Origin: Candidatus Omnitrophota bacterium
Lineage (GTDB): Bacteria; Omnitrophota; Gorgyraeia; Zapsychrales; Fredricksoniimonadaceae
NCBI GenBank assembly: GCA_023247575.1
Contig: JAHFGE010000004.1
Span: 1-39,875 of the forward strand
DNA: 39,875 nt
Reading direction: 5' to 3'
The position numbers were made by a program, and so were the translations under genes. Below are positions 1,773-39,875 of the stretch, piece by piece; positions within the stretch are counted from its first letter, which is position 1, and each line of letters opens with the position of its first letter. The notes under the pieces are model-generated. The model saw only the letters and a list, made by a program, of their open reading frames with translations. It had not been told where the DNA came from and ran no database searches.

Positions 1773-1969
1773 TTCGGGTTCTGGTCAGCCGGTTTTCCGA
1801 CTCCCTGATCTTTTTCAGAGTCGGTTTCTTCCTCAACATCTCGCAGATTCTTTTTGAACTCGCGAATAGCTTTTCCAATAGCCGCTCCTATTTCCGGTAA
1901 TCTCTGAGCGCCAAAAAGCAAAACAAATACAATCAAAATTAAAATCAGTTCGCCTGTACGTCCACCCAT
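1769..1969 (-). CDS. tatA: Twin-arginine translocase subunit TatA/E
   Basis: Internal ATG at 1969 gives MGGRTGELILILIVFVLLFGAQRLPEIGAAIGKAIREFKK, the canonical TatA TM plus amphipathic helix. AAGGAG SD lies 9 nt upstream. The longer track ORF (to 2038) reads through intergenic hairpins. Confidence 0.88.
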   Translation of the reverse strand: MGGRTGELILILIVFVLLFGAQRLPEIGAAIGKAIREFKKNLRDVEEETDSEKDQGVGKPADQNPK

Positions 1970-1989
1970 AACATCACGCTCCTTAATTT

Positions 1990-2099
1990 GTCCCGACGTT
2001 ATGTCGGGACGAATTAATCCCGACCCCGCTTCTTGCATTCTGCAAGAATGCAGCGGGGGAGGGATCTACAATTCTGTTTTATTGTATAAGCTCCTCCCC
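1990..2099. other. Cluster of three stem-loops in the ABC-tatA spacer
   Basis: gtcccgac-gttat-gtcgggac (1990-2010). ccccgct..cttgca-ttc-tgcaag..agcgggg (2024-2058). ggggagg-N30-cctcccc (2056-2099, shares the G-run with the second). Confidence 0.4.
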
Positions 2100-2140
2100 G
2101 CCCCGACAAGGGAAATTTATCTCCCAGCCAAACGAATGAA

Positions 2141-6101: not shown

Positions 6102-7401
6102 AAAAATCCCCGCCCGTAATTTCTTTAATGACCCTATACGTCGACATCAACAGGTATTCCAATTCATCCATCTTAATAACCAACGGTGGCAAAATAACCA
6201 CCACATTCCCTAACGGCCGCAAAATAACCCCATATTGACGCGCTGCCTGACAAACACGCGTCCCCACACGGCCGTCCCAACGTCCTTTTAATTCAATACC
6301 TGCCATAAAACCGCACTGGCGCACTTCTACGACGGAAGGGAGATTATAAAACATCTTTAATTGCTGAGCCAGAAATTTTATTTTAGGGGAGAGCTTCTTT
6401 AAGGTATGCTCTTTTTCAAACACCTCCAGATTGGCCAAGGCTGCCGCACAAGCTAAAGGATTTCCTGTGTAAGTATGTCCGTGAAAAAATGTCTTCTGGT
6501 CTTTATAGTCAAAAACAAAGCCATCATAAATCTTTTGGGTGGTCAGGGTGGCTGCCAACGGCAGATAGCCACCGGTCATCCCTTTGGCCAAGCATAGAAA
6601 GTCAGGGCTGACCGCCTCCTGCTGGCAGGCGAACATTTTTCCTGTGCGGCCAAAGCCAGTGGCGACTTCATCAGCAATCAAAAACACGTCATATTTGGAA
6701 CAGAGTCGACGAAATTCTTTTAACACTCCTTTGGGCCACACCAACATGCCAGCGGCTCCCTGAATCAAGGGCTCAACAACCAACGCCGCCACAGACGGCG
6801 CTTTCTTCTTCAGCAACGTTTCAAAATCATTAACCGCTTGCCAGCCTTGCCCTTTTAAAGCCACCGTCTTAAAAATTAACCCCCGATAGACTTTATGGAA
6901 AAGATCGATGCCCCCGACACTAACAGACCCCAACGTATCACCGTGATAGGAATTTTGTAAATGCACCAAGCTACGCTTATTCTTGTGTCCTGTATTTTGC
7001 CAGTATTGATACGCCATCTTCAAAGCAATTTCCACCGCGGTTGAGCCGTTATCCGAATAGAAAACTTTTTTTAAACCCCTGGGAACAATCTCGATAAGCC
7101 TTTTCGATAATTCCACCGACGCAGTATTCGCTAATCCTAACAAAGTGGAGTGGCTGATTTTGTCGATTTGCCTCTTGATCGCCGCGTCAATCTTTGGATG
7201 GCGATGGCCATGCACATTGACCCATAAAGAGGAAACACCATCGATGTAGCACTTGCCTTCAGTATCGATCAAATAAATACCATCGGCCTTATCAATAATG
7301 AGCGGCTGATTTTGATCCGCCAGCCAATCCTTCATCTGGGTAAAAGGGTGCCAGAGGTAGCGTTTATCCCAGACCTTTAATTGATTTTTAAATTTTGACA
7401 T
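6094..7401 (-). CDS. bioA: Adenosylmethionine-8-amino-7-oxononanoate aminotransferase
   Basis: 435 aa class-III PLP aminotransferase (YHGDT, ADEVATGFGRTG) located in the bio operon. Confidence 0.9.
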   Translation of the reverse strand: MSKFKNQLKVWDKRYLWHPFTQMKDWLADQNQPLIIDKADGIYLIDTEGKCYIDGVSSLWVNVHGHRHPKIDAAIKRQIDKISHSTLLGLANTASVELSKRLIEIVPRGLKKVFYSDNGSTAVEIALKMAYQYWQNTGHKNKRSLVHLQNSYHGDTLGSVSVGGIDLFHKVYRGLIFKTVALKGQGWQAVNDFETLLKKKAPSVAALVVEPLIQGAAGMLVWPKGVLKEFRRLCSKYDVFLIADEVATGFGRTGKMFACQQEAVSPDFLCLAKGMTGGYLPLAATLTTQKIYDGFVFDYKDQKTFFHGHTYTGNPLACAAALANLEVFEKEHTLKKLSPKIKFLAQQLKMFYNLPSVVEVRQCGFMAGIELKGRWDGRVGTRVCQAARQYGVILRPLGNVVVILPPLVIKMDELEYLLMSTYRVIKEITGGDFYG

Positions 7402-8039
7402 TTATTAAATATTTCTTTGGCGGTAAATTTTTTTAAATAGGGGATAATTCCCAAAACATTAACCTTCGATAAACGTCCAATTTCAACAGGATTTGTTTGT
7501 TCCGCGATACCTTTCTTTTTAGGAGTCATGTCGCTAAAAATAATCCCCTTGATTTTAAGTCCGTAGGCTTTAGCCTGGTTAATGGTTAACAGCGTATGGT
7601 TAATGGTCCCTAATCCCAGTCGAGAAACAACAATTACTTCGGCGTTTAATTCACGAATTAAATCGGCATTATAATAGTCCTCGGCCAACGGCACCATCAG
7701 GCCGCCAGCACCCTCGATAAGAATTACATCATGACGATCAGTTAATTGTTTGAAGGCTTCTTTAATTTTTTGAAGGTCAAATTTAATGTTCGAACGCCGC
7801 AGAGCTAAATGAGGTGATAAGGGCTCTGGCGCAAAAATGGGATTGATGAAAGAAATGTCCTCTTGAAGTCCCAACGCTTTCTTAAGAAACTGCGCATCAT
7901 TGCCTGCACATTGCACCGGCTTCATGACCCCGACATTCATGCCCTGCTTTTGCAACAAGAGCCCCAAGATATAGACTGTGATGGTCTTTCCCGCGTTGGT
8001 ATCCGTCGCGGTAATAAATATTGGTTTACGCATGGGCAT
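7377..8039 (-). CDS. bioD: Dethiobiotin synthetase
   Basis: P-loop-like FITATDTNAGKT. I prefer the internal ATG at 8039 (MPMRKPIF...) because the track start at 8075 lies deep inside bioC. Confidence 0.85.
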   Translation of the reverse strand: MPMRKPIFITATDTNAGKTITVYILGLLLQKQGMNVGVMKPVQCAGNDAQFLKKALGLQEDISFINPIFAPEPLSPHLALRRSNIKFDLQKIKEAFKQLTDRHDVILIEGAGGLMVPLAEDYYNADLIRELNAEVIVVSRLGLGTINHTLLTINQAKAYGLKIKGIIFSDMTPKKKGIAEQTNPVEIGRLSKVNVLGIIPYLKKFTAKEIFNKCQNLKIN

Positions 8040-8839: not shown

Positions 8840-9628
8840 TTAATTAATCAAAAAATTCTCCAAGAGATCATTATATTGTTGAGGCTTGGTTAAAAACGGC
8901 AAATGGCCACATCCGTCGATAAAATCCAGACGCGCATGGAGCATATGTTCCTTGAGCCATTCCATCACATCTTTAGGACAAATATAATCCTCGGCGCCGG
9001 TAATAAACTGTACAGGGCAAACAATTGATAAGAGTCGATCACGCAAATCCGTTTTCTCTAAAATATCCAAAAAGGCCTGCAAGGCTTCGCGCCGTGGCAC
9101 TGGCTCATTTTGGCGTAAGCTTTTAAGGTCTTTAAATTTTTTTGACTCCCTTTCCTTCATAGTAAACAGCGAGCGAAAGAAAATATCCAAAATGGAGGCA
9201 TAATCACCATCAAATTGCTCGCTTAAGGTACGAATTTTTTCAATATCAAGCCCTGCCGGGTAAGCGCTGTTTGCCCCGAGCGAAGTCGAGGGGCGGGCGA
9301 ATTTAGGGATCGACCCCACAAAGCTCATGCGATGAATTTGCTCTGGAATCCGACGATAAAGTTCTAAGGCGACTAAGCCCCCCAAAGAACTGGCAACGAT
9401 GTTGATCTGCTGCAAATCCAAAGTTTTTAAAATGTCGTAAAGATCTGTGGCCATTTCAGCAAGAGTTCCCCTTTGCCAAGGGCTTTGCCCGTGCCCAGGC
9501 AAATCGACGGTCAACACCTGATAATCGCTCTCGAAAAAAGCTTTTTGGCCTCGCCACCACTGGCTGCTGCCTGCAAAGCCATGAATAAAAACAAGCGGCT
9601 GGCCTTGACCGGATATTTGATAATACAT
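8840..9628 (-). CDS. bioH: Pimeloyl-ACP methyl ester esterase (alpha/beta hydrolase)
   Basis: 262 aa. HGFAGS oxyanion region, nucleophile elbow ASSLGG, C-terminal GHLPF His, in bio operon context. Confidence 0.8.
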   Translation of the reverse strand: MYYQISGQGQPLVFIHGFAGSSQWWRGQKAFFESDYQVLTVDLPGHGQSPWQRGTLAEMATDLYDILKTLDLQQINIVASSLGGLVALELYRRIPEQIHRMSFVGSIPKFARPSTSLGANSAYPAGLDIEKIRTLSEQFDGDYASILDIFFRSLFTMKERESKKFKDLKSLRQNEPVPRREALQAFLDILEKTDLRDRLLSIVCPVQFITGAEDYICPKDVMEWLKEHMLHARLDFIDGCGHLPFLTKPQQYNDLLENFLIN

Positions 9629-9632
9629 ATTT

Positions 9633-10778
9633 TTATAAACCCTTCATGCAATGTAATAAAAAATCCAAATCCTCCTGAGTATGCGTGGCCATGACGGTGA
9701 CTCGTAGCCTAGCCGTATGCATAGGCACCGTTGGCGGGCGTATGGCCTGCACAAAAATTCCCCGCTCCAGCAATTGTTTGGATATGGCCAAAGCTTTAGA
9801 TGAATCTTTGACCACCACCGGAATAATGGGAGTCGTTGATTGCAAGGTATCGAAACCTAAATTTTTTATTCCTCGACGAAGATGCTGCGCATTGCTTAAA
9901 ACCTTGCGCCGGCGCTCCTTATCCTGCTGGATAATATCCACCGCCTCACAAGCAGCCGCTGCCAATGCCGACGGCATGGCTGTCGTATAGATAAAACTGC
10001 GAGCATGGTTGATGAGATAGTCACAGAGATTCTTTGAACCAGCCACATAAGCCCCAAAACATCCGGCCGCTTTAGAGAGAGTGCCCATTTGAATATCAAT
10101 CTGATTCTGTAAACCCTCCTGTTCTGCCAGGCCGGCGCCATGCTCGCCGAAGATACCAAACGCATGCGCTTCATCGACCATCACCAGGGCTTCATAGCGG
10201 TGGGCTAAATCCGCAATTTCCTTCAATCGTGCTGTGTCCCCATCCATACTAAAAACAGTATCAGTAACAATCAAACGTTTCTTGAAAGTGGCGGAATCTC
10301 GAAGTCCTTGCTCCAAGGCTTGCATATCATGATGAGCGTAGCGTTTTAATTGAGCCCGGCTTAAAAGAATCCCGTCGATAATAGAAGCATGATTTAAGCG
10401 GTCGCTGAAAATAACGTCATCTTTGCCAAATAAAGCGGAAATAATCCCCGTATTAGCCATGTATCCGCTGGAAAAGACCAGGGCGTTTTTTGTTTTTTTC
10501 AACCGAGCTATCTTTTCTTCCAATTTTAAATGCTCGGTCATGGTGCCGCAAACAAGCCTGGAGGATCCTGATCCGAAACCATATTGGGTTATGGCTTTGA
10601 CAGCGGCCGCTTTGATACGTTCATCGTCGGCCAAGCCTAAATAATTGTTGGAACAGAAATTTAAAACCCGTTTCCCATCGAGGATAATTTCCCTAGATTG
10701 AAAGCTTTCTACCTTGCGCAAGAAACGGCGCAGTGATTTGGATTCCAGCTCTTGAAGATCTTGTTCTAAAAAGTTCAT
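9633..10778 (-). CDS. bioF: 8-amino-7-oxononanoate synthase
   Basis: 381 aa class-II PLP enzyme. DEAHAFG and the TLSKA lysine motif. Confidence 0.9.
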   Translation of the reverse strand: MNFLEQDLQELESKSLRRFLRKVESFQSREIILDGKRVLNFCSNNYLGLADDERIKAAAVKAITQYGFGSGSSRLVCGTMTEHLKLEEKIARLKKTKNALVFSSGYMANTGIISALFGKDDVIFSDRLNHASIIDGILLSRAQLKRYAHHDMQALEQGLRDSATFKKRLIVTDTVFSMDGDTARLKEIADLAHRYEALVMVDEAHAFGIFGEHGAGLAEQEGLQNQIDIQMGTLSKAAGCFGAYVAGSKNLCDYLINHARSFIYTTAMPSALAAAACEAVDIIQQDKERRRKVLSNAQHLRRGIKNLGFDTLQSTTPIIPVVVKDSSKALAISKQLLERGIFVQAIRPPTVPMHTARLRVTVMATHTQEDLDFLLHCMKGL

Positions 10779-11740
10779 GATTTATCTCGTAATGTCATGA
10801 CATCGCCAGCCATTTTCTTGACGATGACGCCGCTGGCCTGACGGATTAAAAGTCCCCCGTCATGATCAATGTCCAGGGCCTGGCCTTGTGCATCACCAGT
10901 AGCATCGTGAATGCGAACATGTTTTTTGATGGTGGCGGAATGCTGTCTGCAATAGTCTAAAACCGAATCAAACTGGCCTTTGAGAACTTTGCCGTACCAT
11001 ATTTCCATCGATCTTAAGAAGGCTTGAAAAACTTCGATGCGGTTAATGGTTTTTTTCGTTTCTATTTTCAAAGACGTAGCTGTATCCAAAAGCTGATGGC
11101 TGTTTGTATTCACATTTAAACCTACCCCTATCACGACAAACTTCACCTGGTCTACTTCGGCCCTCAATTCTGTGAGAATACCAGCCACCTTCCTGGAATG
11201 AATTAAAAGATCATTTGGCCATTTAATGACCGACTGTAGGGATGTGGTTTGGCGCATGGCTTCGGCCAAAGCCACAGCTGTCATCAAAGTCAAGGGAGGC
11301 ATTTGAGTGGGCAGCAACTTGGGCCGCAGGATCAACGAACAATAAATACCCTTGCCCCTAGGCGATAGCCAGCTGCGTCCCAGACGACCACGGCCTTTGG
11401 TTTGCCCTTCCGCACAAATGACGGTGCCTTCCGGTGCTCCTTCCATACCTAAACGAAACGCTTCATCCATCGTCGAGGCCAGTGAATCAAAGGAGTATAC
11501 CTTCTGCCCCATAAACTTGGTGGATAAACCGAATTGAATTTCGTGGGCCAGCATTTTGTCAGGGAGCGATTGCAATTTATAACCCAAATGGGGCACCGCC
11601 AGAATGTCATAACCGTCCTGGCGCAACTGATCAATATACTTCCACACAGCGGCGCGGCTGATATGAAGATCATCGCTCATCTCCTCACCGGAAACGTATC
11701 CATCAGCCTGTTTTAAAAATTGGATGATGCGCCCCTGCAT
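10775..11740 (-). CDS. birA: Bifunctional biotin-protein ligase / bio operon repressor
   Basis: N-terminal winged-HTH (GEEMSDDLHISRAAVWKYIDQLR) plus ligase core GQTKGRGRLGRSW. Confidence 0.92.
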   Translation of the reverse strand: MQGRIIQFLKQADGYVSGEEMSDDLHISRAAVWKYIDQLRQDGYDILAVPHLGYKLQSLPDKMLAHEIQFGLSTKFMGQKVYSFDSLASTMDEAFRLGMEGAPEGTVICAEGQTKGRGRLGRSWLSPRGKGIYCSLILRPKLLPTQMPPLTLMTAVALAEAMRQTTSLQSVIKWPNDLLIHSRKVAGILTELRAEVDQVKFVVIGVGLNVNTNSHQLLDTATSLKIETKKTINRIEVFQAFLRSMEIWYGKVLKGQFDSVLDYCRQHSATIKKHVRIHDATGDAQGQALDIDHDGGLLIRQASGVIVKKMAGDVMTLRDKS

Positions 11741-15046: not shown

Positions 15047-15061
15047 TCCCGAAGTAAAAAA

Positions 15062-15145
15062 TGCTGGGAGAGGGAATCGAACCCTCACCAGGTTGCCCTG
15101 ACTGGTTTTTGAGACCAGCGCGTATACCAGTTCCGCCATCCCAGC
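15062..15145 (-). tRNA. tRNA-Leu (anticodon CAA), type II with long variable arm
   Basis: Manual cloverleaf. Acceptor GCTGGGA/TCCCAGC, anticodon stem CTGGT/ACCAG with loop CTCAAAA, variable stem CAGG/CCTG, T-arm GAGGG-TTCGATT-CCCTC. CCA is not encoded. Confidence 0.9.
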
Positions 15146-15148
15146 AAC

Positions 15149-15226
15149 TGGTGGAGCTGAGGGGGATTGAACCCCTGACCTCTTCAATGCCATTGAAGCG
15201 CTCTCCCAAAACTGAGCTACAGCCCC
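15149..15226 (-). tRNA. tRNA-Ala (anticodon GGC), CCA encoded
   Basis: Acceptor GGGGCTG/CAGCTCC with the G3:U70 Ala identity pair, anticodon loop ATGGCAT, T-loop TTCAATC, 3' ACCA. Confidence 0.9.
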
Positions 15227-23030: not shown

Positions 23031-24899
23031 TTACTCTAAAACAACATCATCCAGATAAAATATTCCTCCTTGAGGATTGTCATCTTTTAAAATAAAGAAC
23101 CTGAAACCATGAATGATGGAATGCAAATCTTTCCCTGTTAAATCAATGGTGTATTCTTGCCATTGATTGGTTAATTTAACGGCCTGAATTTTTATATCAT
23201 CGGAATTGGGAGAATCCCCTCCGACCCCAAATTGAGAAATCAATTCCCCTCCCCGTTGACCACGAGCCCAAAAAGTTAAACGCTTAAATCTTCTTACATC
23301 ATAGGCGCCGTCGACGTCTTTCCAATTGCCCACCGGGTTTTGCCAGTAAACCCCTGCCCATCGTTGCTGCCCCCGAGGGGCATACTCAATGGCAATACAT
23401 GAATTGCCGCTATGACAATCCCTTTGATAATCATCATTGAGATGAATATCATGAATGTCTCCTACCCAGCCTGAAGGAAAAAAATGGTTAGAAGGGCTGT
23501 GTTTATCGGAATAAATAAAAAATTTGGATTTGTCTTTGATAAACGGCTTATCGGACCCTATAGTTACGACGGAAATTTCTCCCTGGTGTACATCGCCTTG
23601 ATTCCAACCAACTGCTGCTAGAAGGTATTGCTCCCGGATGTAGCCATTGCCATCAACGGTCAATATAACCCTACCATACTGATCGGTAACTGCCTTGTAG
23701 ATATCTTCTTTCCAATTAATCGGCCAAAATATTCCGATATCCACGGACTGGTTATCCAACCCTCTTATCCAAAAATTAAACTTAACTTTTCCATCGTCAA
23801 CATAATGAGCTGTCACCGTAATATTCTTAACTTCTACTCGATTGTTCTGCTTATTAATAAATGTTCCTACCGTCTGATCAAATTTCGTAAACTCATTTAA
23901 AACTTCACGTGGGTGGCCATACACATCATGCCCATCTCCAAAATGAAGGAAGCCATCCCACTTCCATGGATGATCATCATGAGTAGAGGGATCCGAAGGA
24001 TAATGCCATGTATCTACCCAACTGACGGTACACACCCCTGCAGCCTGTGCCTTAATAGCACTTTCAACGCTTTCTAAATCTCCCTGGGCTTGTTGTTTTT
24101 GGGAATTCCCTCCAAATCCAATATCGTTCAGCCGTCTTTTGGAAACAGAAAATCCTCCAGTCTCACCAATAAATAAAGGCTTGTCTTTGGATATATGTTT
24201 TTTGATCCACTGTAAATATAGATCAAATCCTATAGTTTTATTGATTGCCTCAGGAGTAAATTTAAACGCATTAACTGTGACAACATCCCACAGGGAATGA
24301 TCCATAAAGGCTAGAGGAACCCAACTGTCCATGGAAACCGGTTTATGATCTATGGATTGGATTAAGGATTTTATAGATTTAAAAAACTCTTGAATATTTT
24401 GCTGGCCACTATAAAGAACCGCTTCTGGGGTTGGTTCAGTCACGACCAGGTACATCAAAATATTAGGATAATCTTTTGAGTATTGGACAACTTTTCGGAC
24501 ATAATCTAGGGACAGTTTTACAAGAATGGGGTCAGAGAAATCCCGGTCAGGCGGCAGCCATATCCCTTGAATGACTTTTAAGCCATATTTTTGAGCCAAA
24601 GAAAGCTGGCTGGAGGAAAGAGCATCCCATGTTCGTACCGTATTGAATCCGGCTTTCGCGATACGCTGAAAATCGGCCTCAATAAGTTTGCCGTTGACTT
24701 GATCCAGACCAGGCCATTGCCCAGGACGCCATGGCGCATAACCGATAGCGTTAATAAAAAATGGCTTATCATTTAAAAAGAACTTATCTCCGTGAATTGA
24801 AATTCCATCACGGAATAATGAAACTGGCTGCGACGATGATACGGCCATCGTACATACCCCAAAAAAAAGAATCCCAAGTAAAACACATCGTGCTTTCAT
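23031..24899 (-). CDS. Secreted TIM-barrel glycoside hydrolase (clan GH-A-like) with C-terminal carbohydrate-binding-like domain
   Basis: Signal peptide, GFNTVRTW, a VVTEP acid/base-like box and an IGETGG nucleophile-like box. The C-terminal ~180 aa are beta-rich (WAGVYWQNP...FWARG). The GH family is not assignable by eye. Confidence 0.6.
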   Translation of the reverse strand: MKARCVLLGILFFGVCTMAVSSSQPVSLFRDGISIHGDKFFLNDKPFFINAIGYAPWRPGQWPGLDQVNGKLIEADFQRIAKAGFNTVRTWDALSSSQLSLAQKYGLKVIQGIWLPPDRDFSDPILVKLSLDYVRKVVQYSKDYPNILMYLVVTEPTPEAVLYSGQQNIQEFFKSIKSLIQSIDHKPVSMDSWVPLAFMDHSLWDVVTVNAFKFTPEAINKTIGFDLYLQWIKKHISKDKPLFIGETGGFSVSKRRLNDIGFGGNSQKQQAQGDLESVESAIKAQAAGVCTVSWVDTWHYPSDPSTHDDHPWKWDGFLHFGDGHDVYGHPREVLNEFTKFDQTVGTFINKQNNRVEVKNITVTAHYVDDGKVKFNFWIRGLDNQSVDIGIFWPINWKEDIYKAVTDQYGRVILTVDGNGYIREQYLLAAVGWNQGDVHQGEISVVTIGSDKPFIKDKSKFFIYSDKHSPSNHFFPSGWVGDIHDIHLNDDYQRDCHSGNSCIAIEYAPRGQQRWAGVYWQNPVGNWKDVDGAYDVRRFKRLTFWARGQRGGELISQFGVGGDSPNSDDIKIQAVKLTNQWQEYTIDLTGKDLHSIIHGFRFFILKDDNPQGGIFYLDDVVLE

Positions 24900-24900
24900 A

Positions 24901-25323
24901 TTAATTACCTCTATTCCTAAATAAATTTTGGAACCATTTGGTTGAAGTCAAAGTTAAGCCTCCCATCACCAATATATTCATCAGCAAAAACAAATGCATC
25001 CCTTGTGTCTGCCAAAAATAGTATTTATTCACCCATAAATTAATCAAACAAACACAAGAGATAGCCACAATGATCATATGAGGAATAAAAAATCGTACGT
25101 ATGAAACTACTGCATTATGATCCTTTGGTGTTACAAAATTGGTACGCAGTAACTTGCCTTTGAAAATCGCCTTTATAAATGCGTAAACAACATAAGGACT
25201 TGATGCTATTTCAGCCAATCCACTTCTCCACCAGATACTCTGCTCGCTTGATGGATTAATCAAAAACCGCCCTCCCCACCCAATTAAAATAAAAATTTTA
25301 TTTAGGTAACTCCGAAGTACCAT
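24901..25323 (-). pseudogene. Small 4-TM protein resembling only the C-terminal part of a processive GT2 (cellulose-synthase-like) glycosyltransferase
   Basis: EQSIWWRSGLAEI resembles a degenerate Q(R/Q)xRW box and is followed by a FVTPK motif and TM helices. The catalytic D,D,D part is absent. An in-frame stop at 25396-25398 bounds it upstream. The track start is TTG at 25359 and the ATG is at 25323. Confidence 0.4.
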
Positions 25324-26095
25324 TTCCCTGCGCCTTGACGAGTTTACGGACGGTGTCAAACAAACCTTCCAAGATACGATTCGCTTCCGTTTCGTCTATT
25401 TCAAATTGTTCGATAATTTGTAGGACACTACTGCCATCATACCAGGCTTCAAATATCTTGATGTCGCGGGGCACATGGTAGCCGGCGAGGTCATTGATTA
25501 ATTGTTCGATGCCTCCTTCATAAGGCAACTCGACCTTTTCTCCTCCTTGATCCACTATTTCTTGGTTTTCAGCCACCGCCTCTTCCTCTGGAGAACCTAA
25601 TCCTTCATCCGTATCAATATCTTCTTCCTCGTCTTCTCCGGGGGGAAGATTCGGCTCATATCCTAAGCGCCGATAAGCTTCAGCCGCAGGAATAATATCC
25701 AGCCATGTAAGCTCGTCATCCTTACCCGTTGCCGGACTCTGAAGATTGATCTGGCCGGTCGACCTTAACAATCGGGTCGTTTCAGACTTAAGATGCCTCT
25801 TGAGTGCTTCATGAACAAATTCCCTCAATGTTTTACCTCTTTCTGGTGTATATTGAAGCATTTGGTCGATAACAATCTCGCAACCCGTCGCGCGCAAGTT
25901 ATCCGCCCAATGGCTGTCACTGCTGCGAGAATGCCGACTGACAAACTCTTCGATCATGGGGTAAAACGATAAGACCAAATCCGAAAAGGCTTTGGAGTCA
26001 TGCCGTATCCGCTTCCAGCAATCAAGCTGTTGGGTATCGCTCAACTCTTTGGCTGCGGCCAATTGGCGCCTCCACTGTTCATCCGCCGATGGCAT
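25298..26095 (-). other. Sigma-70-like module (regions 2 and 4) forming the giant ORF C-terminus
   Basis: ADNLRATGCEIVIDQMLQYTPERGKTLREFVHEALKRHL resembles region 2.1-2.4. IFEAWYDGSSVLQIIEQFEIDETEANRILEGLFDTVRKL resembles the region 4 HTH. An in-frame Met lies at 26095. Confidence 0.5.
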
Positions 26096-29000
26096 CTGCG
26101 GTATTTCAGGTTTAACCGTCTCTTTGGCTGGAAAATATTTTTTCATGTCTGTGGTCAACATCATCGGACGGAAAATAACTAAAAGCTCCATTTTATTCTC
26201 TGGACCAGGGATCTTTTTCATTCCATACATAAGCACAACTCTTTCTCTGCTATTTAACGTTGCCGCCCGTAAAAAAACCCAGTCACCTTCGACGTATCCT
26301 TTCGATTCAAGATAACCCGTTGGGAAATATAAAATACGACTTTCAATATTCGCATCCAAACTGATCCCCAAACGAGGGTTGCCGCCGACATCTCTTTTAG
26401 AAAAAAGTTGTACCCTAACTCTCGCCCATTTAGGAGGCATTCGTTTACCTTTTAAGGCTTGCAACACATAATGCATCCGAAGCAAAACTAACTTTGGACC
26501 TTCCTTTGAAGGCAGATAAACCCCAACCGGGGCGTGACGTAAACAAACTTCCTGATCTGGGCTAATCATGGCATAAAAAGCAAGAGCCGTAGGTAAAAGA
26601 CGAAACCGTCGACCTTTTAATAAATAATCGTAAATTTCTTTTCCCCCTCTGATCTGCGGAATATAAAAAGCTGCCCGGCCAAATCTTTTTGTCATTCCCG
26701 GCGTCGCCTCAAAGGGGAAGGGACCATCATCCAGTGTCAGTCCCGACCCTCTTCTGTGATCGCCTTTGAAGATAAATCTCTCTACTTTATGGATGAGAAG
26801 AGGATCAAGTGGAGCTCGAAAATAGGTCCTTTTTGCTTGCGCTGGTGGCAATTGCCCCTGTACTCCATAGGCATGCTCGATCGCTGGGTAAATATCGACG
26901 GCTGGAATTCTTTTCTCTAATTCGAAGGCTGACAACAATTGTGACATATTTTCCGGTTTCATATATGAAAACCGTGGATCAATTGATTTTACTCTATCCC
27001 CCATTTCTTTGAGCGTCTTCCCTTGCCGCAAACGCCTCAACTTCATGAACGGCCCCCAGGACAAACGCTCCCGCGCCTCTAAATAGTTCATTCCTATTAA
27101 AAATCGGGAAGGTTCAATATCGAGAATGGAAGCAATATGTAGGATATCTCCTGGTCTGTATTTGCCATCGCTTTGACTTGCTAAAAGATTACGCCGATAG
27201 TCATAAATATCCTGATAACCTAACAGCCTTGCCATCTCCTGGTCAGAAATACCGCGGTCATTCGCAATCGCCTTTATTCTTGCCCCAAAAGGTATCGATG
27301 CCAGCTGATCTACCAGCTGTAAATCACTAAGCGGCCGCTCATTGAATTCGGCCAACAAGGCTTTGCCTTTGCGTTGTTCCCGGATGTTTACCGCCTCTGG
27401 TAATCCACCGCTGACCATGGCGATATTCATGTCGGGGAGAAAAGTCAGACGGAAAGTTTGTTTGGCGATGAAATCCAATGACCTCTGATCGTGCGGGTTG
27501 TCTGATCCATAACCGCCAACCCGCAAAAATATCGGCACCAGTGAAGACTCTCCGGCCGAATTCCCAGGGCCGAAAATAACCTCGGCCCATGGGTGTGTCA
27601 ATTCAGTTGGAACAACAATGGCATAATCGCCAATCTCTATTTCACGAGATGGGGAAATTGGCATCGCAAGTCTCGTCACCAGGATCTGATATCCTTTCAA
27701 ATAAGCCCAGCCCAAATCTTCTGTCAACCGTTTATGCGAAATTGTTGGAAAAAAGGAATCGATCGTTTGAATTGGTTTATAATCATTATCGACCATACGG
27801 ACGGTAGGGATAAATCCACACTGGCTCTCGCTTCCTTGAGCGCTATTGACTGTAAAATAATAAGGAAAGGCAAACTGATCAAAGGCCAGCGAAACTGTTC
27901 CCTTTTTGAATCGCTCGTCAAAAAAGAAATAAAACGACGAATGGAGTTCGGGTAGGGAAAAAGTTTCCAAAGCAAATAAAATTTCTGAAAGGACCTGATG
28001 GGCATAGGGAACAACGTATCCTTTAACCCAGAATAAACCACTATTTGCAAATCCTTCGATTTTTCTTATTTTAAATACTTTTGCTTTCCCCAAGACCCTA
28101 ATACTTTGGCCCTCCTGATTTGTTTGATAGGCAACCAGTAGATCCTCAGCCCTTTCTTTCCCAAGAAACTGAACACCCTCGATACCACCGCTTTGATCAA
28201 CATGCAATGAATACAGGGCGCCGCGATAACCCGGAAAACGCACATCAAACAAGGGACGGACAGTCAGCCTTTCCATTGAAGGAAGGATTGACTCGATCCG
28301 TTTGCTCTGTATAATCTCTGCCTTACGTAGCCCTTCCATGGTTTCAAAAACGACCGCCGCAATTCGTCCGTCTTTAATCACACTGTTGAGCCTTCGGTTG
28401 ACGTAAATCGACCCACCAAAACCGGAAGCCTCAACAGGAACCCAGAATCCCAAATCCGGGACAAAGCGCCATTCGATCCGGATATCTTTTAGACCACTTT
28501 GATTCGCAGCCCTGACCTTGAGGGCGTTGATGCCCTGCGGCAGTTCCGCAGCGAAGATTCTGTTAGAGAAATCATCATTTAATAAGGGCAAATACCCATC
28601 AATGATCCGATGCCTCCGGCTCCATTGCCCTTCGGATAATTCCTTAAAGGTATCTTCACGGTTTCCTGCCCATCTATCAGCAATATATTGGGCATAGTAG
28701 GAAGACCGCAGATTAAACCTACGGACAAACGCGTCATGGAAAACCACAGGCGAAACCTTTCGTAGAACCGCGTGAATCCGTTTCTTGTCATCACTGCGGC
28801 CAACGGAGTCTAGCGTCTCTAGGATCATCTCTGTCAAATGTCCTGCCGCCTCTTGATTCTCACCAAAACCCTCCTCTTTCCCAGCAATCATCACTTCCCA
28901 TGGCCTTTGGATTTCAAAAATACATTTTACCTCTAGACCCCGAGCCTTAATCTCATCAAGGTTCTCTATCTCCTGTTGGCTTAACATATGCCCCGTACGT

Positions 29001-32000
29001 AATCCCCCGGCGCCAGGTAGATCCCGTGGATCAAAACTTACTAGATCATTGTCATCAAAAGACGAGACCGGAATTCTATCCAGAATAAATCCAGCGTTAA
29101 TCCCTGCTTTGTATATATTTCTTCCCGCTACCCAGGCCTGGGCAACGGCAATTTCTTCTCCCTCATGGTGGATATAGATAGTGTCCCCTTCTTTCCTGGG
29201 GCTCATCTGGCTAAGCTTCTCCCAGAGAAGATCAACCATCTCACCCCGTCCTGTATCGCGCAGTTTTTTGCAGAAACAATTCACGTCGGATACTTGACGT
29301 AAAAATATTCCCAACGGCATCCCAACTGGCCTCCTTGCGGGAACCTTTACAACAGTAGGTACGGTCTGCGCCTTCTGTTTTCTTTTGAGTTCTTCCCTAC
29401 GTCCTTCTTCTCGTAATTTTTCAAATTTTTGTTTTAGTGCTGCATCAATCTCAAGTTCCTTTCCAACCGACCAACATGGACTCGGCTCATTCAACCTCCT
29501 GAAATAATTAATTTCAACGTAAAGACGCCAGCCTACTCTCAAAAGAACGTACCCTCCAGCGACGATTAAGAAAAACATCCTGTAAAAATCAAACATGACA
29601 TAAATGGCAGAGGCGATTACTGGAACCAATGGAGCTCTATTGGTTACCATCTCGACTTTCGTTAGAGGGCGGCTTGTGATATTCGCATTTGTATCAGCCC
29701 TGGCTATGTCGCCAGTCAATAGTATGAACCCGCAGGTTACAAGCGCAAGCGGGACAAGGAACAAAGGCAGTATGCGCCCAGTCCGGCCGGGCTTGCAAAT
29801 CGACGGCTTCCCACAAATCGACGGCTTCCCCTCATTGACAACTTCTAACTGAGGTGCTATAGTTTGATTAACTAAAAAAGAGGATTGCCTTACGGTGCGC
29901 AAAACAAAAAACAGACTCAAAATGAATATTAAAACCCCGAATGGTAAAAGATTTAATGCCGACAAGTGGCTTACGGAACATTTCGAAGAGCTTGTCAATA
30001 AATTTCCCGGCGAATATATAATTGTGGCTAATGGAAAAATATATCGTAAAGGCCCCCCCCGCCAATTGAGAGATAGGGCCTTAAAAGAAAATCCAGGTGC
30101 TGTTATTATGGGGCACCGAGTTCCCCGTCCAAAAGATTTTCTATGCGCGCTCATCGGGCAATAAAGTTCCCTTACAAAGCCTACAGGATGTTTCCCTGTC
30201 CCATAGTTCCTGTTCAATTGCAGGGACCTAAAGGTTGGTTTACTGCTGACGCCTATGTGGATAGCGGGGCTTTTTATTCTGTTTTCTGTATTCAAGATGC
30301 TGAAATGATCGGGCTTGACTACAAGTGCGGTCGACGAAGTAGCATCTGTGTCGGGGACGGAGATTCTATCCCTGTATATTTCCATACCCTCCCTGTAACC
30401 ATAGGAAATATTTCTCTCAACGCTATAATCGGATTCTCCGAAAAACTGAAAGTAGGATTTAATCTCCTCGGCCGCAGAAGCATATTCGAACGATTTGTGG
30501 TGATCTTTGATGACGTCAGACGCCAGATCACCTTTATCCCGCGCCGATGAATTAACTTTCTCTAAAACATCAGCCCTGGCTATGTCACCGGTCAATAGTA
30601 TGAACCCGCAGGTTACAAGCGCAAGCGGGACAAGGAGTAAAGGCAGTATGCGCCCTGAGGACGATTCGACGGGCGCTGGCACAGAGGTAGACGAATTAGG
30701 TGCTGTGTCCCCGGAATTCTGTACTTTTCCCCATTCATCAAAGATAGCAGGCGACACCTCTGCCATCATCGACGGCAAAATTGTGCAGGCCAAGACAACG
30801 AGCAGCACAGGAACCGTCCCTAAATGCGCCAGCCCCGCTGCCCCGCCGTTGGCGGGGGCAAGAAGCGGGGCCAGCGCAATACCAACACCCACCGCTGCCG
30901 CTGCACCTACAAGCGCAGTATTTACTATCCTTGCTGATTTGTAAACTGTACCGTTTGCTTGACGAGAAATGTCTTGAGTTCTCTGGAGGGTTAAATGCCC
31001 CCTCAATGCTTGACCCGCTGCCGTATATGATGTATGCTTTGAAATGAAAAGAGGACTTATAATGCTAAGAGTGAACCCCTTGACCCAGAGAGAAACCAAA
31101 GCGGTTAATGTATACAAAGCACTGTTGCTTAAAGCATTTCCAGGCCGTATCCAAAACTTTTTACTTTTTGGGTCCAAAGCCCGTCGAACGGCTGGTCGCT
31201 GGTCAGATATCGATCTTCTAGTTGTTCTTACAAAAAACGGCCGCAAGGCCCGCAAAGAAATCGCCGCGCTCACCCATGAGCCGATTGCCAAATACGGCGT
31301 TGAACTTTCCCCTGTCGTAGTGACCGCGTCCGAGATGAAGGAATGGTCGCCATTTATCGCCCACATCAAAAAAGAAGCAATTCCCATATGAACAAGAAGC
31401 AAGAATACGTAAACCTGCGCCTGAGACTGGCCAAAGAGAAATTGAAAGTGGCGGAGCTTTTGGCTAAAAGCGGCAGTTACCGCGACTCCATTTCCAGAGC
31501 CTATTATGCGATCTTTTATGCCGCAAAGGCCTTTTTGCTGTTTCACGGGCAGGACCCGACTTCTCACAAAGGTGTCAGCGTTCTTTTTCATAAATTCTGT
31601 GCCACGCACAAGCACCCTGACGCAAGTTTCGCCAAAATGCTTTCTGTTCTTCAAGAAGCACGTCAAGAAGCCGATTACAAAGAAAAAGTACGCCTTACGA
31701 AACGCGACGCCAAAGAAGCCGTCGCCTCTGCGAGAATTTTCCTTAAGGAAATCTACCGTCTCATTCGGGGCCACTAAAAGCCAAAGTTTCGCAATTCCCA
31801 GCGTCCTTACTGCCGTTGAGGCCATGACCTTCATTGTGCCCCACCCAAAGAAATGGCAGCCATCCAAGCCATTGCTTGCGGCGAGAGGCGCGGCGGCGGG
31901 TTGAGTCTTATCGTCACGTAATTTCTTCAAAGACTCCTGGAAATCACACAATACGGCAGCGGTGATTTTGTGCGATCGGCTGGATTCTATTTCCAAAAAT

Positions 32001-35000
32001 TGACTCATCGTGTTCTTGGCGCATTCTTCAACAACGTTACGGTATTCTTGCTTCAACTCAAGCGGGAAAAGAACAGTGATGGTTTTAATAACTGCTGCAT
32101 TAAGCCGACAGGCTGATTCGCCGGGATTTTTTGGTCTTAACATTTCGGCCATGGCCCGGGCAAAAGTTAACTTCCACTCGTTGGGGCACTCAGTCCACAA
32201 ACATTTCAATTGATCCAGAGCTTTCTCTGGTGTAATACGTCCAAACACCTTTTCTCCCCAAATGGCATCCGCTAAGGCAATCATTTGTTCTCCCAAACTG
32301 TTGCGAATATAGTCAGGAATTTGTCCCTCGCCTAAGATGACAGGGGCAGGTCCTTCAACGGCCCTTGCTTGAGGCAATGGCTGGTGCAGGACAGTCGCAT
32401 CGGCTACGGTCAAGGCAGGCATGGGAATTGACGGTGAAGACGCTGGCTTCGATGGAACGGATTTCTGCGGGAGACCAACAACATTGCGACCCATAATGTT
32501 AGAAAGGACGTCTCTTTCCCGGTGCTCAGGGATCAGGCCCGCTTCCCATCTATTTATCTTCCAAGTATACATTCTCAGGAATTGTGTAAAACCTGTGGGA
32601 TCACGGTCCTGCCAATGGCCCAAATATTGTTCACGTTCTTCTGCCGTCTTAAATGAACGAAGCACCGGCACATCAAAGACATCTCCCTCGATTAACAGTT
32701 TTAACGTCACAGTTTCCCATGTCGCGCAAAGCCTCTCTCGAACGAGTTTCAATGTTTTAGGATATTTCCCGGCATCCTGCCACGCCTGGGAAAATGTCAT
32801 TGCTCGCGTTATAATAACTGGGTCCACACCCAGGGCCCGTGCCAGGCAGAAAAGATTGTAAGGCAATGGGGCGCCGGCCTGCCACGCAAACCGCCCTTCA
32901 TTTTTAACGATGCCCCCTTGCTCTCTTTCCATATTAAAGTAACTTGTATATCCTATGTTGGCCTTCTTCAAGAATTCTCTGATGTCTTCATCAGGGCTCA
33001 CCCAAATCCTCAAAAATGCGATACGGTAACCGGTGGGTTTATCCTTAAGATGAACCAAGACTTCTTCCGGGAGAGCCAGTGTGCATGAAATCTCCCCATA
33101 ATGAGCCAGAGGTATAATAACTTTATCTTCCCACTGCACGTATGGTGTTTGCGGATTGATCCGCCCTTTAAATTCCTTAACTTTATCTTTAACTTCCTCA
33201 TAGGCAGCCATTCGTTCTCTATTAAGCCTCCCAATACGTTCCTGCCCGGCGGCTCTTTGGACAATGATGTTGCGGATTGCCTCTTCGTCTTCGAGAGCGG
33301 TTTCACCTGCTTTCCAGGCCTCTGCTTTGTCGGCTGTAAATCCTGATCCTAACAGCGCCTGTACACCTTGCGTCGAGAAACGTATGGAACCATCAAACCA
33401 ATAGGCCAAGAGGGCAGCGAGAATGTCTTTTCCAGGAGTTACCAGCCCCATCATGTTTTCTCGCTGATCATCTTCCATAAACGGATTAAGCCGACGGACG
33501 TCTATGCCGAGCATATGGGCCGCATCGGTTTGATTTCTATTTGCAGCAACAAGCGCCAGGGAATACGCACGCCAATGCAATTCTTCCAAAGACAACGTGG
33601 CCGGGTGCTCTGCTTTCAGAAAAATGCCGAATTGTTCTCCCAGAATTTTCCTTGCCCGTCCTGGATGACGTAATTCGGAATGCTCATGCAAAATAAACGC
33701 CAATGGTGTTAATGTTTTCTGGTACAATCCGCGCTCACTGACACCCAAGCGATCCCTCAATTCCTTTCTCACTCCTGCTCCCATTTCGGTGGCATCCTGT
33801 GACATGGCTGCAATCGTCGACAGAATTCCGATAAGTTCAATAAGTTCAACGAGAGTCGCCTCTTCTTTACCTGCACTTTCTTTTCGCAACCAGCTATAAA
33901 AAGACGGCCATATAAAGCCCGCGGGACCGGATAGGAGTGTTTGAACTTGTGTTGATTCACCTGATTCCTGTAAAAGGCGTACGGCCTGGGTTTGTTTTTT
34001 CTGCGCAGCACGGGTGTCCAAGCCGATGATGTTCTCTAAATAGCATGCCACCAAAGTCAGCGGCTGCGGGCTCCGTTTTTTGAGAACAGTATATTCGCCA
34101 AGGGCATCCAGCAAAAATTTGTGTCTTCGCTCAAGGTCGGTTGAGGCAAAGCCCCTGAGGGCCATGATCAACGTTTGCCACTCGAGGGTCTTTTTGGCTT
34201 CCTCCAGCGGCACATTCTTTTGCCGTTGATCCGATAACCATTTTAAAAAACGCTCCAATAGGGTACCGGTTGTTGGGAGAGGTTTAGGGATGACTTTCAA
34301 AGGAGCTGCTGGCAATTCGACAGTTATTTTTGCATCTAAAGGCGCAACGGCCTTAGTCGTTGGACCAATTGCTGTTGATTGAACTGGCGGGGCCAACGGG
34401 GCCACCCCCACTGCCGCTGGTTTCGTTTCCGTTAAACTTTTGGCCGCTGCTTCCGCCGCCGGTTGATCTTGACTGGCAGATGGCAAGGCTGGTCCAGTAA
34501 CTGGCGTTTCAGCACCAGTCTCAACCGGACCTTTCACAGGGCTACTGGTTATCCGAACCAATGTGGCCACCAGTTTGTCATAATGCAATCTGGCGTTTGA
34601 ACGGACGGAAAGGAACCTTTCTGGTGTTGAAAATTTGTACTGAGAATCAAACGTACCCAAAAGCCGAAAGACCTCCGCCAATTTCCCACGAATAACCTCC
34701 ACGGTAGTAGTGCCTAATTGAAAATTTAGAAAATCAAGTTCTGCATCTACCAGGCTAAGCGATGCCTCAAGAAGCATTCTAGGGCCTTCCTCTAACATAT
34801 CCATGTTACTGGATGCCTCTGTCAACAAATGTCTGACCCTTTCCCTCGCGGCATCGACTATTGTTCTTTCCCTTTGAAGTTCTTCTGCGGCCTGATGAAT
34901 AATCTCTCTGGCTCTGGTAAGATACCGGTTAAACTCGTTAAGATCGAATCTCTCCGGCCTAGATCTTTGTATAGAGGACCACGATGTTGTGCAAAGAAAG

Positions 35001-38000
35001 GCAAAGCCGGCGATGGCCGCAAGGAAAAGCCACGGGGACCCGGCTGCCAATGCCAATACAGCAAGGAAAAACACTACCGGCGAGCGAAGCTTGGTGAGAT
35101 CTATCGCCGGTTTTCCTTTATAGTTCAACTGTCCGTTTCTATTCGGAAGTTTTGCGGTTCTAGCCTTCAGCAATGCGCTCCATAGGCTATGACGGATAAC
35201 TTCAATGGTCAGCCGATGTTTTGCCCTTTGGCGACCGTGCGAGAATACAAGTCGTCCGTCAAGATAAACCTCTGTTTGAGCGCCCGGAGTTTTATAATCG
35301 TTCATGATTCTTCGAAAGAAATTTCTCAACAACCCATTGTAAGAAGCTGCAGGCGGAACAGAAAAATCATAACGGACCAAATCCGGCCGGTCTTTGAGGT
35401 TGTCCAGCACATGCTCCAGACTAGTGACCACACCGCGCGGGTTAAGCCACACTGCCTGCGCCGGCAGGACGGCCGTGAATTCCTGATGACCGCTGCGAAA
35501 TACAGCACGTGCTGTACCCATGATGGTTCGCCGCAGGCAATCCACTAAATCTCCACCGACGAAAAGGCCGGCCACTGGCAACGGCTTCGAGGGCGTAAAA
35601 TGTCCCCATTCGCTCTCGTGTGGCCTTAGTCTGAAACGACGCAGTGCGTCCGGATAAAACCACTGCCCATTGATCAAAATATAGCGGCGCTCGAGTGTGG
35701 GCCAAGCGAGCACTCCTTTATACTCGTCCATGAAGAGCTCATCTGGATGCGTTAGAACAAAAAAGTTTAGGGGTGTGCCCCTTAGCTTGAAATTCGACTG
35801 GACGACGGACGCCGATACTATACCGAGGAGGAAAAAGCCGGCGATGGCGAGAACAACAAGTAATGCAGGGACTATGCCATACGAAACAATCTTGTGGACC
35901 GTTACCCAAACCCGTTTCGAGGCCGCCGAAAGCGACTTCTTAAGGGACTGTTTGAGCATATACCGTCCCGTTTTACCGGGCAGCGCCAAAAGACCACTTG
36001 AGAGAAAACCAGCTTTCGGGAAGAACCGGAAGGCAATGGTAAGAATTTTCTTCGGCAAATATGTCAATACCAAAGCTAAAGCTATCGTTGTCCAGAAAAA
36101 TTCTTCGGTAATCTGCCCAAAAGAAGAACGCAGTTTAGGATGAACCGCTACCCACATCTCTTCAAATTCAAGTGCCTCAACAACCAGATGTCTTGCGAAC
36201 TTCTCGATCTTGCGTGACGGAATGCCGGACATGACTCCAAGACCCCAGATAATGGTCCGTGTCGTCTCAACGTAATGCTGAATACTGACGACCGGTCCCT
36301 TAAAAGGCGGCGGCGCAAGAAAAATGAATCCCTTATGAATGAAACCAGCAAGCCGTATGTTTTGTTCTTCAAGATGATCAAAAAACTTCTTGTCGCCGAC
36401 AATGATGATGTCGTTAGGCTCTATCCTCTCGAGCAAATTCCTATTTATTGGTTGAATTCGAGCCACGTTTTCCTCCATGTCATTCGGAAAATAATAGCGG
36501 ACATTTTCTAGATACCCTGCGCCGATGGGGCCAATTCTTAATGCCTCCTTCACACTATGCACCTGCCACAATGACAGCGATTTACCGTCGAGTGTCCGCC
36601 AGGCAAAGCGTTCTCGCTGAGAGCGATGAAACACCGCCGCCAACCAAGCCAAGCCGACCATGGTAAGGGCGCCGATAATCCACGGCGCCGCGATATGCAC
36701 AGCGGCCATAAGCCCGCCCCAGCCCGGCCCGTCAAAAACTGATCCAATTTTTGACAAGGTCTCGCCAAGACCGAAGGTCATGGCGGACACGTCGGGAAGC
36801 ATGAGGGCGAGGGACCATAGATTAAGGTATTGCAACGACGCGGGGAAAATAGATCCGATACTGCCAGTGATATGAATTCTGGCTTGACGTGATAATCGTT
36901 CTATACTACGATGGCTTTTGTGGAGAATGCCGTCAAACCAATCAACTTTAGCTCGCACGCCAAGGAACAATTTACCTACCGTGGAACAAACGAAAGCGAA
37001 ATAACTTCTGCGATCCGCAATTCGCGGTGGGAAAAGGCGGAACTCGGGCGCATGCAATGCAAGAAAGATCTTACCTACAATAAAGATTGGAACAATAAGT
37101 ACTACGCCACAAAACAAGTAAAGCCAATATTCATTGAGGAAAAAGATAGAATTGCAGTGATTACCGTTTACGTGTATTATTTCTAATAAGGAGGAAACAT
37201 GCGCATTACTTATGACCCAACTGTTGATGCCTTGTATATAAGATTCGAGGAAACTACCGTTACTACCAAGCACCTTTCCGAGGGCATAGCCGCTGACTAC
37301 GCCCCAGACGGCAGCCTTGCCGGCATCGAAATTCTGGACGCGGTAAGACGCTTTGGGGGAGACAAGACAACTCTCAAGAAGGTTACTCTTGAAGAAATAG
37401 GTTTGGCTGCTTAGGAAGACACCGACCAGTACAATCAAGGAAAGAATGTTTGTCAATATCCCTGGCGGGCCATGAAACAACGGGCCGAACCAGCCCGCCA
37501 CGTCGGGAAGCATGAGGGCGAGGGAAATGAAATTAAGACATGCTGTCCACCGAGCCATTGGACTGCTCTGAGCCGGCTCTTGAAGTCCGAACTCTTTAAG
37601 GAGATTCTCTTTATCAAAGGGCTGTTGACCCATACGCGCAAAATACTCGGCATTGTCGATGAAATTTTGTATGTCCTTGAATGGAAATGCCCTAAGTATT
37701 GAAAATCCCTGCGGTGTCAATAAGAGGACCTTAAAAAAGAATTGATACGTTCCCTCAACAGCTGCTTTAACTCCTTCGGCATTGAGACCAAGAATAATAT
37801 ATTTCAATAAATCTGCGGATAAATGAACATAAAAAGCATAGTAATCGGCATATTGAAGAGTCAGGGCTGATTCATGGACATGGCCGCGGCGCTGTTGACT
37901 AATATCTGGAGAATCCAAAGCCTTTTGATAGGCCCCTTCGATAGCTTCGCTTCCTCCCGGAACATAATCGGTCCTTCGGATTATGGCAAATATTTCGGCA

Positions 38001-39799: not shown

Positions 39800-39841
39800 G
39801 CCTGCCCCGACCGCAGCGTCGGGGGCGGGCCCTGTAGATTT

Positions 39842-39869
39842 ATTATAGGGCGGCGACTTTGTTACCCAA
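39842..39869 (-). promoter_or_regulatory. Weak candidate promoter TTGGGT-N16-TATAAT upstream of the giant ORF ATG
   Basis: Minus-strand -35 at 39869-39864 and -10 at 39847-39842. Hairpin ccccgac-N6-gtcgggg at 39805-39824 lies between it and the ATG at 39799. Confidence 0.3.
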
Positions 39870-39875
39870 TCGAGC

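Follow-up and report, generated by a model that had tools for sequence, protein, structure and literature searches.

Rickettsia palindromic elements are noncoding palindromes of approximately 100 to 150 base pairs (bp) that are tolerated within open reading frames (ORFs) and translated there as an extra peptide. Campbell-type or att-site integration, as known from prophages and integrative elements, duplicates part of the target gene, and chromosomal integron arrays hold toxin-antitoxin cassettes. Bacterial antisense overlapping genes that arose by overprinting have been described in P. aeruginosa (PMC8850804) and for the pop/ompA pair of E. coli (PMC7103648), and the Archaeovorin-type giant genes of Omnitrophota (bioRxiv 10.1101/2023.11.21.568195) encode a mix of domains like that of L008, a giant ORF of an Omnitrophota metagenome-assembled genome (MAG), in which we found TPR, PPDK_N, NUDIX, GNAT, and methyltransferase domains. 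Here, we analyzed a stretch of 39,875 nucleotides (nt) from Candidatus Omnitrophota bacterium (contig JAHFGE010000004.1 of assembly GCA_023247575.1), referred to as the window, which carries a giant ORF on its minus strand. Within this ORF and antisense to it lies a two-gene cassette, Module A, that is bracketed by a pair of 87-nt direct repeats. Our analysis suggests that Module A probably entered the giant gene by an insertion that duplicated its target and that it survived there as an in-frame and nearly stop-free insert, whose remaining stops were removed later. The features on which this reading is built are the following.

25298 to 39874, minus strand: giant ORF that hosts the nested cassettes; it spans at least 4,858 codons and runs open up to the edge of the window.
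30569 to 30655: direct-repeat copy nearer the N terminus of the giant protein, encoding GRILPLLLVPLALVTCGFILLTGDIARAD.
29693 to 29779: direct-repeat copy nearer the C terminus of the giant protein, encoding GRILPLFLVPLALVTCGFILLTGDIARAD.
29780 to 30568, plus strand, antisense to the giant ORF: inserted cassette of 789 nt, delimited by the sharp repeat edges and by a switch of codon usage to the plus-strand frames.

The two repeat copies agree at 83 of 87 positions (95%), with mismatches at offsets 19, 22, 69, and 70 and a longest identical run of 46 nt, and their starts lie 876 nt (3 × 292) apart. The alignment thereby bore out the coordinates, the four differences, and the offset that had been given in an earlier note on this DNA. 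Pairwise alignment of the 340 nt around each copy revealed sharp edges of similarity at both ends of the repeat, and both copies abut the cassette directly, with no host sequence in between. The runner-up direct repeats in the 14.9-kb ORF region measure 39 to 42 nt, and chance families span 22 to 28 nt at 70 to 80% identity; the 87-nt pair is far beyond chance. In the frame of the giant ORF, both copies read GRILPL[F/L]LVPLALVTCGFILLTGDIARAD and share a hydrophobic helix with a Kyte-Doolittle 19-residue score of 2.6, in agreement with the transmembrane-like peptide that the earlier note had recognized in both. Three of the four differences between the copies are synonymous third-position changes in this frame, as against approximately one in four expected under neutrality (P of approximately 0.05), and the fourth is a conservative exchange of Phe and Leu. 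This is a weak indication of peptide-level constraint on both copies.

A repeat that encodes a membrane helix could also represent an internal duplication of a transmembrane segment that existed before the cassette landed between its copies. The hydrophobic segments of the giant protein, 20 of which were found by a hydropathy scan of the window part, indeed bunch at the cassette sites, and giant Omnitrophota proteins are rich in hydrophobic helices (bioRxiv 10.1101/2023.11.21.568195). However, on the inner side of either copy, the 95% DNA identity stops right where the cassette begins, and a self-comparison of the giant protein by BLAST with chunked queries revealed no further internal repeats of comparable quality. 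We therefore consider an older duplication of this kind very improbable.

The segment between the repeats holds all the elements that the earlier note had listed there, namely, an 18-bp duplication, a promoter, and a gene pair.

29796 to 29830: perfect 18-bp tandem duplication, CAAATCGACGGCTTCCC in two copies, an in-frame indel that the giant frame reads as GKPSIC GKPSIC.
29835 to 29863, plus strand: promoter of the cassette, TTGACA-17-TATAGT, which has an extended −10 TG and agrees with the consensus at 11 of 12 positions.
29895 to 30164, plus strand: DUF5678-like small gene, first in the cassette, with a weak Pfam match to DUF5678 (E value of 0.0065).
30143 to 30550, plus strand: retropepsin-like aspartic protease gene, full length at 135 amino acids (aa), with a D-S-G-A active-site motif.

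The promoter is followed by a GAGGA ribosome-binding site at approximately 29881 to 29885. The two genes overlap by 22 nt, and with the promoter and ribosome-binding site of their own upstream they display the layout of type II toxin-antitoxin systems, in which two small adjacent or overlapping genes share a promoter of their own. No PADLOC matches were obtained for the Module A proteins, their Pfam matches stayed below the cutoff, and we found no literature tying retropepsin-like proteins to toxin-antitoxin systems. Clear homologs of the DUF5678-like protein are encoded by the partner genes of the related loci L003, L004, L007, and L009, and the protease has 90 homologs of equal length that are up to 77% identical, many of which carry the retropepsin-type families PF13975 or PF13650. 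Residues D40, G42, and A43 are invariant in the protease alignment, and a tblastn search of the protease against plasmids gave no match. Between the window and L007, the mismatch rates of the protease gene at plus-strand codon positions 1, 2, and 3 were 0.19, 0.11, and 0.54, respectively; the mismatches concentrate at third codon positions, and the plus-strand protein is therefore the one that purifying selection maintains. As a separate observation, the antisense reading of positions 29900 to 29956, at the Lys-rich 5′ end of the DUF5678-like gene, yields a strongly hydrophobic 19-mer, LNLLPFGVLIFILSLFFVL, with a Kyte-Doolittle score of 2.57.

The nearest DNA relatives of Module A, L007 and L009, are free-standing operons that sit in ordinary contexts and share 76% nt identity with the window. 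This homology is limited to positions 29940 to 30538, which correspond to the two coding regions, whereas the promoter, the 18-bp duplication, and the 87-nt repeat all lie outside it. Similarly, the cassette relatives in L003, L004, L005, L007, and L009 share no sequence beyond the two genes. Comparison with these relatives showed the segment between the repeats to be foreign to the giant gene, and the cassette is mobile as a two-gene unit, with which the repeat travels in no relative examined. Because the free-standing relatives share the two coding regions only, the repeat would most simply be read as host-derived sequence.

The host of this cassette bears the marks of a genuine coding frame. 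Not a single internal stop was found among its 4,858 codons, while the other five frames contain approximately 3.5 to 6 stops per 100 codons. We trained a codon-usage score on 17 ordinary genes located in the initial 25 kb of the window; it was positive along nearly the whole giant ORF and dipped only at the plus-strand genes, and the codon usage of the giant frame agrees with that of the neighboring genes. The window part of the giant protein yielded no Pfam or NCBIfam matches, and the whole protein had no match in a word-indexed collection of 5.8 billion proteins. Its C-terminal block, however, shares 41% identity with part of the L008 giant ORF over 900 aa, and the homologs of this block reach an E value of 7 × 10−220. 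As in Archaeovorin-type genes, the window harbors a multikilobase, uninterrupted ORF of an Omnitrophota genome, with numerous hydrophobic helices between soluble blocks. It differs from them in that the divergent SecA-DEAD helicase domain is absent from the window part of the ORF, as judged by Pfam; the ORF continues beyond the window. In the annotation of the source contig, which belongs to ENA assembly ERZ27297570, the giant gene is called, and the MazF toxin described below, the sole cassette gene that was looked up, has no record there. The listed product of this giant gene has exactly 5025 residues, the same figure as for the giant gene of L003; this is probably a display cap, and we did not take it as a length. 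Two further observations concern this ORF. A 152-aa ORF at 24901 to 25359 (140 aa in the source-contig call) overlaps its 3′ end by approximately 60 nt and has no family match, and a near-consensus, promoter-like TTGACT-16-TATAAT sequence at 28288 to 28315 on the plus strand occurs within a host block of strong coding signal and is not followed by any recognizable plus-strand gene.

Given that the contig stems from a metagenome assembly and that the giant protein lacks Pfam, NCBIfam, and word-index matches, we considered whether the repeats could be an assembly artefact or whether the giant ORF could be spurious and the repeats located in ordinary intergenic DNA. Several findings make an assembly artefact unlikely: the four differences between the copies follow a codon-aware pattern, the sequence between them is unique, and a similar architecture was found in independently assembled MAGs from four other projects. 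The notion of a spurious ORF conflicts with the host-like codon usage of the giant frame, with the E values of the C-terminal homologs, and with the extreme stop-avoidance statistics presented below. Taken as one explanation, artefact or spurious frame is scarcely credible.

The giant frame remains stop-free across Module A, and the cassette plus one repeat copy (789 + 87 = 876 nt) amounts to 292 codons. The 876-nt spacing of the repeats is in frame because the giant ORF stays open through Module A and at least three other antisense cassettes. To quantify the avoidance of stops, synonymous codons of the embedded genes were resampled under host codon usage while the embedded proteins were held unchanged. 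The probability of finding no antisense stop in the required frame ranged from 0.0009 to 0.26 per embedded gene, and the product over eight genes was approximately 3 × 10−14. The free-standing relatives illustrate what would have been lost: the equivalent giant frame contains three stops in L007 and five in L009, all of them at sense TTA, CTA, or TCA codons, and at these sites the window has CTC, CTG, TTG, ATG, GCA, and CCA, which are mostly synonymous Leu replacements. These results showed that stops have been purged from the antisense frame of the embedded genes. The earlier note had missed both the stop-free course of the giant frame through the cassettes and the recoding of antisense stops.

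Every cassette that we saw is antisense to the giant frame. Of 17 embedded genes, 10 have the in-register antisense frame as the open one, and for only 1 is the open frame the most stop-rich. This pattern points to a sieve in which only insertions whose length is a multiple of three and which lie in the stop-poor, in-register antisense frame persist, while residual stops are removed. The arrangement resembles the embedded antisense genes described previously (PMC8850804, PMC7103648) in that coding occurs on the opposite strand and the in-register antisense frame is favored. In overprinting, however, the embedded ORF is young, whereas here the embedded genes are old and widespread and have their own promoter, the reading in the host frame is the new one, and the overlap would have arisen by insertion.

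Based on these data, we propose the following course of events. A free-standing two-gene operon with a sigma-70 promoter would have entered the giant ORF backwards, and the insertion would have duplicated a short host segment coding for a membrane helix, thereby giving rise to the 87-bp repeats. The insert would have been retained, as the added 876 nt kept the giant frame in phase and brought almost no stops into it. Its orientation is consistent with this: the protease gene occupies the in-register antisense frame, by nature the alternative frame with the fewest stops. The Leu and Ser codons that read as antisense stops (TTA, CTA, and TCA) would later have been lost, mostly by synonymous changes. 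The giant protein would thus have gained a loop of approximately 260 residues, which is the cassette read in antisense, with one copy of the helix on either side. Speculatively, the insertion together with the duplicated helix would add two helices, changing one helix into three and keeping the topology of the 1,490 downstream residues. Like the Rickettsia palindromic elements, Module A would be mobile DNA kept inside a coding sequence through an open frame, but it consists of a promoter-bearing two-gene operon of approximately 800 bp on the opposite strand and has an 87-bp flanking duplication.

As for the route, a duplication of 39 to 87 bp would most likely be generated by fill-in of a widely staggered break or by single-crossover (Campbell-type) integration of a circle carrying a homologous segment. 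Direct repeats of common origin flank the insert, as is the case after Campbell-type or site-specific integration, and they are tens of bp long, the interrupted gene is intact, and precise excision is possible, all of which is reminiscent of att-type events. In contrast to these, however, there is no integrase, the insert spans just 789 nt, no core-site structure is present, and the repeats differ from cassette to cassette. Integrases were found neither among the scanned ORFs of the window, which did not include every small ORF, nor in the source-contig annotation. Three other routes were rejected. Insertion of a transposon or insertion sequence does not fit duplications of 87 bp and, at a second cassette, 39 bp, compared with approximately 2 to 15 bp; there are neither terminal inverted repeats at the insert ends nor a transposase or integrase in the insert, and the earlier note had rightly judged the duplication too long for such a target site. 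An integron cassette was dismissed on the grounds that there is no attC-like fold and that the repeat pairs differ in sequence, and a tRNA-linked integration site was discarded after Rfam and tRNA scans of the giant-ORF region had come out empty.

The repeats could alternatively serve as recombination sites of a reversible, phase-variable cassette, in a population that contains the giant protein both with and without the insert. As already pointed out in the earlier note, recombination between the copies would remove the module precisely and in frame. Moreover, the identical run of 46 nt suffices for homologous recombination, and a circle with one copy could re-enter the empty site. On the other hand, the copies are fixed for four differences, three of which are synonymous, and this speaks against recombination or gene conversion being frequent. 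When both strands of the two copies were folded as DNA, no structure resembling a recombination site or attC emerged, with z scores from −0.8 to +0.7, and no recombinase was present among the scanned ORFs. The repeats of the other cassettes are different, shorter, and more decayed, and if the gene pair constitutes an addiction module, its loss would be counterselected. The empty site was not found either: the exact 46-nt repeat core had no match in genome and metagenome contig collections, degenerate back-translation of the repeat peptide matched no metagenome contig, and the reconstructed empty-site peptide matched nothing in the 5.8-billion-protein index. A reversible cassette is therefore distinctly unlikely. 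The earlier note had offered insertion by duplication or recombination and a reversible cassette as alternatives; the foreign cassette with its coding-only homology supports the former, whereas the diverged copies and the lack of a fold and of a recombinase tell against the latter, and nothing in our data points to a giant protein that exists in plus-insert and minus-insert versions. Within the proposed insertion by target duplication, RecA-type deletion between the copies would be possible, exact and in frame, without constituting a programmed switch.

Module A is not the only cassette nested in the giant ORF, as its window part contains at least three others, none of which interrupts the giant frame.

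31044 to 31777, plus strand: MNT nucleotidyltransferase and HEPN cassette (Pfam NTP_transf_2, E value of 3 × 10−7; HEPN, 9 × 10−22; PADLOC PDC-S09 and PDC-M05).
36788 to 37537, plus strand: DUF4258-like/DUF2283 cassette including its repeats, with genes at 36911 to 37186 and 37199 to 37414 (DUF2283, E value of 1 × 10−15; DUF4258, weak).
38825 to 39398, plus strand, antisense to the giant ORF: cassette of an AF2212-like antitoxin and a PemK/MazF toxin.

Promoter-like sites were identified upstream of the MNT-HEPN genes (31010 to 31038), the DUF4258/DUF2283 genes (36884 to 36912), and the AF2212-MazF genes (38775 to 38803; TTGACA-17-TATATT). The MazF and HEPN/MNT cassettes belong to recognized toxin or antitoxin families; the DUF4258/DUF2283 pair is uncharacterized, and we take it to be toxin-antitoxin-like. 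The DUF4258/DUF2283 cassette is bracketed by an in-frame direct repeat of 39 nt (36788 to 36826 and 37499 to 37537) with a spacing of 711 nt (3 × 237), an identical core (27 of 27 positions), and a partly hydrophobic encoded peptide. This pair is a second, older example of the Module A architecture. A third pair (34976 to 35017 and 35807 to 35848; 42 nt, 71% identity, 15-nt core) was too weak to count. In the interval from 30600 to 31000, the GC content is approximately 55%, compared with approximately 45 to 49% in the neighboring intervals; this is a short Ala/Gly-rich, helix-coding stretch that separates Module A from the MNT-HEPN cassette.

Related loci of other Omnitrophota genomes allowed us to examine whether this architecture is confined to the window. 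In four of them, one frame is open over the entire fetched locus.

L001: open frame of 7.2 kb (1 to 7198), GC content of 34%.
L002: open frame of 7.7 kb (1 to 7670), GC content of 34%.
L008: open frame of 22.7 kb, GC content of 53%.
L010: open frame of 5.5 kb, GC content of 56%.

L002 contains a PIN cassette inside the frame that is open over its 7,670 nt. L003 (Omnitrophica, GCA_018814545.1) carries a Module A homolog together with DUF5647, HicAB, and PIN genes, all of them antisense to a frame that is open for 10,974 nt, and the joint probability of this frame being stop-free is approximately 1 × 10−12. Hence, nested antisense cassettes in fully open giant frames recur in two other Omnitrophota MAGs, L002 and L003. 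In L008, a Ser/Pro-rich linker and just one hydrophobic helix lie ahead of the host block that is homologous to the window, and there is no antisense gene in the vicinity. An unoccupied junction would be expected to look like this, in a locus that is too distant to be a true empty site. P0095/L010 was rejected as an empty-site ortholog, as the alignment begins just after the repeat.

L003 also bears on the question of to whom the repeats belong. Its cassettes are separated by nested in-frame repeats of 123, 50, and 39 nt, and copies of a leader of 170 to 300 nt (8936 to 9139, 9742 to 9914, and 10619 to 10924; 79 to 90% identity), which carries a TTGACA..TATACT promoter and a ribosome-binding site, precede HicAB, PIN, and a further gene. 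Three consecutive cassettes are thus each preceded by one promoter-bearing leader, and in the window the repeat copy at 30569 to 30655 sits 389 nt upstream of the next co-oriented cassette, MNT-HEPN. Both facts would suit an 87-nt sequence that is owned by the cassettes as a boundary or leader element, of the integron type or as an array junction shared by Module A and MNT-HEPN. However, the cassette relatives share nothing with Module A outside the two genes, the Module A promoter lies outside the repeat, and no attC-like fold was detected. Furthermore, each repeat pair of the window has a sequence of its own, the second 39-nt copy is followed not by a cassette but by a strongly coding host block of 1.2 kb, and in the giant frame the helix encoded by the 87-nt repeat appears to be under purifying selection. 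A cassette-owned boundary element is hence an unlikely explanation. Integron arrays do share with this locus small, co-oriented, promoter-bearing cassettes that lie close together, with related repeats between them in L003, but IntI and the attC-like fold are missing here, the repeats differ, and the array is placed inside a translated-looking ORF of the opposite strand.

Several points nevertheless weigh against insertion with target duplication. No enzyme or sequence signature accounts for an 87-bp duplication, as inverted repeats, a recombinase, and microhomology at the junctions (29779|29780 and 30568|30569) are all lacking. In the searched collections, there was neither an empty-site allele nor an ortholog of the exact junction, and we infer the polarity of the insertion. 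The position of the copy at 30569 to 30655 upstream of MNT-HEPN is also that of a boundary element, and the L003 repeats belong at least partly to the cassettes because the shared leader includes cassette promoters. Finally, the only sign that the giant ORF is translated across the cassette is its freedom from stops; the evidence for constraint on the giant frame comprises just the stop avoidance and the three synonymous changes versus one nonsynonymous change within the repeat.

Two observations concern the surroundings of the giant ORF. The separate neighboring gene at 23031 to 24899 encodes a 622-aa protein that is 50% identical to sequences in two Omnitrophota MAGs, and its homologs sit inside the fully open frames of L001 and L002; this suggests fusion and splitting, from one lineage to another, of genes located where the giant ORF ends. 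Adjacent minus-strand genes for tRNA-Leu(CAA) and tRNA-Ala(GGC) at 15061 to 15226 are ordinary and unrelated to the cassettes.

Searched by keyword, the two giant-gene papers (bioRxiv 10.1101/2023.11.21.568195 and 10.64898/2026.06.07.730766) present toxin-antitoxin genes only as flanking genes or cargo and do not mention antisense or opposite-strand genes or stop codons; the word “nested” is absent from the latter, and “embedded” is used solely in unrelated contexts. The wider pattern, in which a promoter-bearing operon lies antisense in a giant ORF, with a long host duplication and a recoded sequence, is apparently undescribed. Annotation that allows one gene per locus leads gene callers to drop either the giant ORF or the nested operons. 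We tentatively suggest that the giant genes of Omnitrophota might be landing sites for promoter-bearing, toxin-antitoxin-like operons that become nested in antisense and recoded at Leu and Ser codons, with both readings expressed; the helix duplications would perhaps be kept for restoring topology, and the cassettes would perhaps guard segments against deletion. If the giant frame is truly translated, this would be a natural case of long two-strand coding made by insertion, with Leu/Ser recoding as its signature. The finding also bears on how giant genes of up to approximately 100 kb survive mobile DNA, as only in-frame insertions that are stop-free in the in-register antisense frame would persist, and it suggests that the evolutionary dynamics of these little-understood giant proteins may involve toxin-antitoxin cassettes, head-on promoters, and the duplication of membrane helices.

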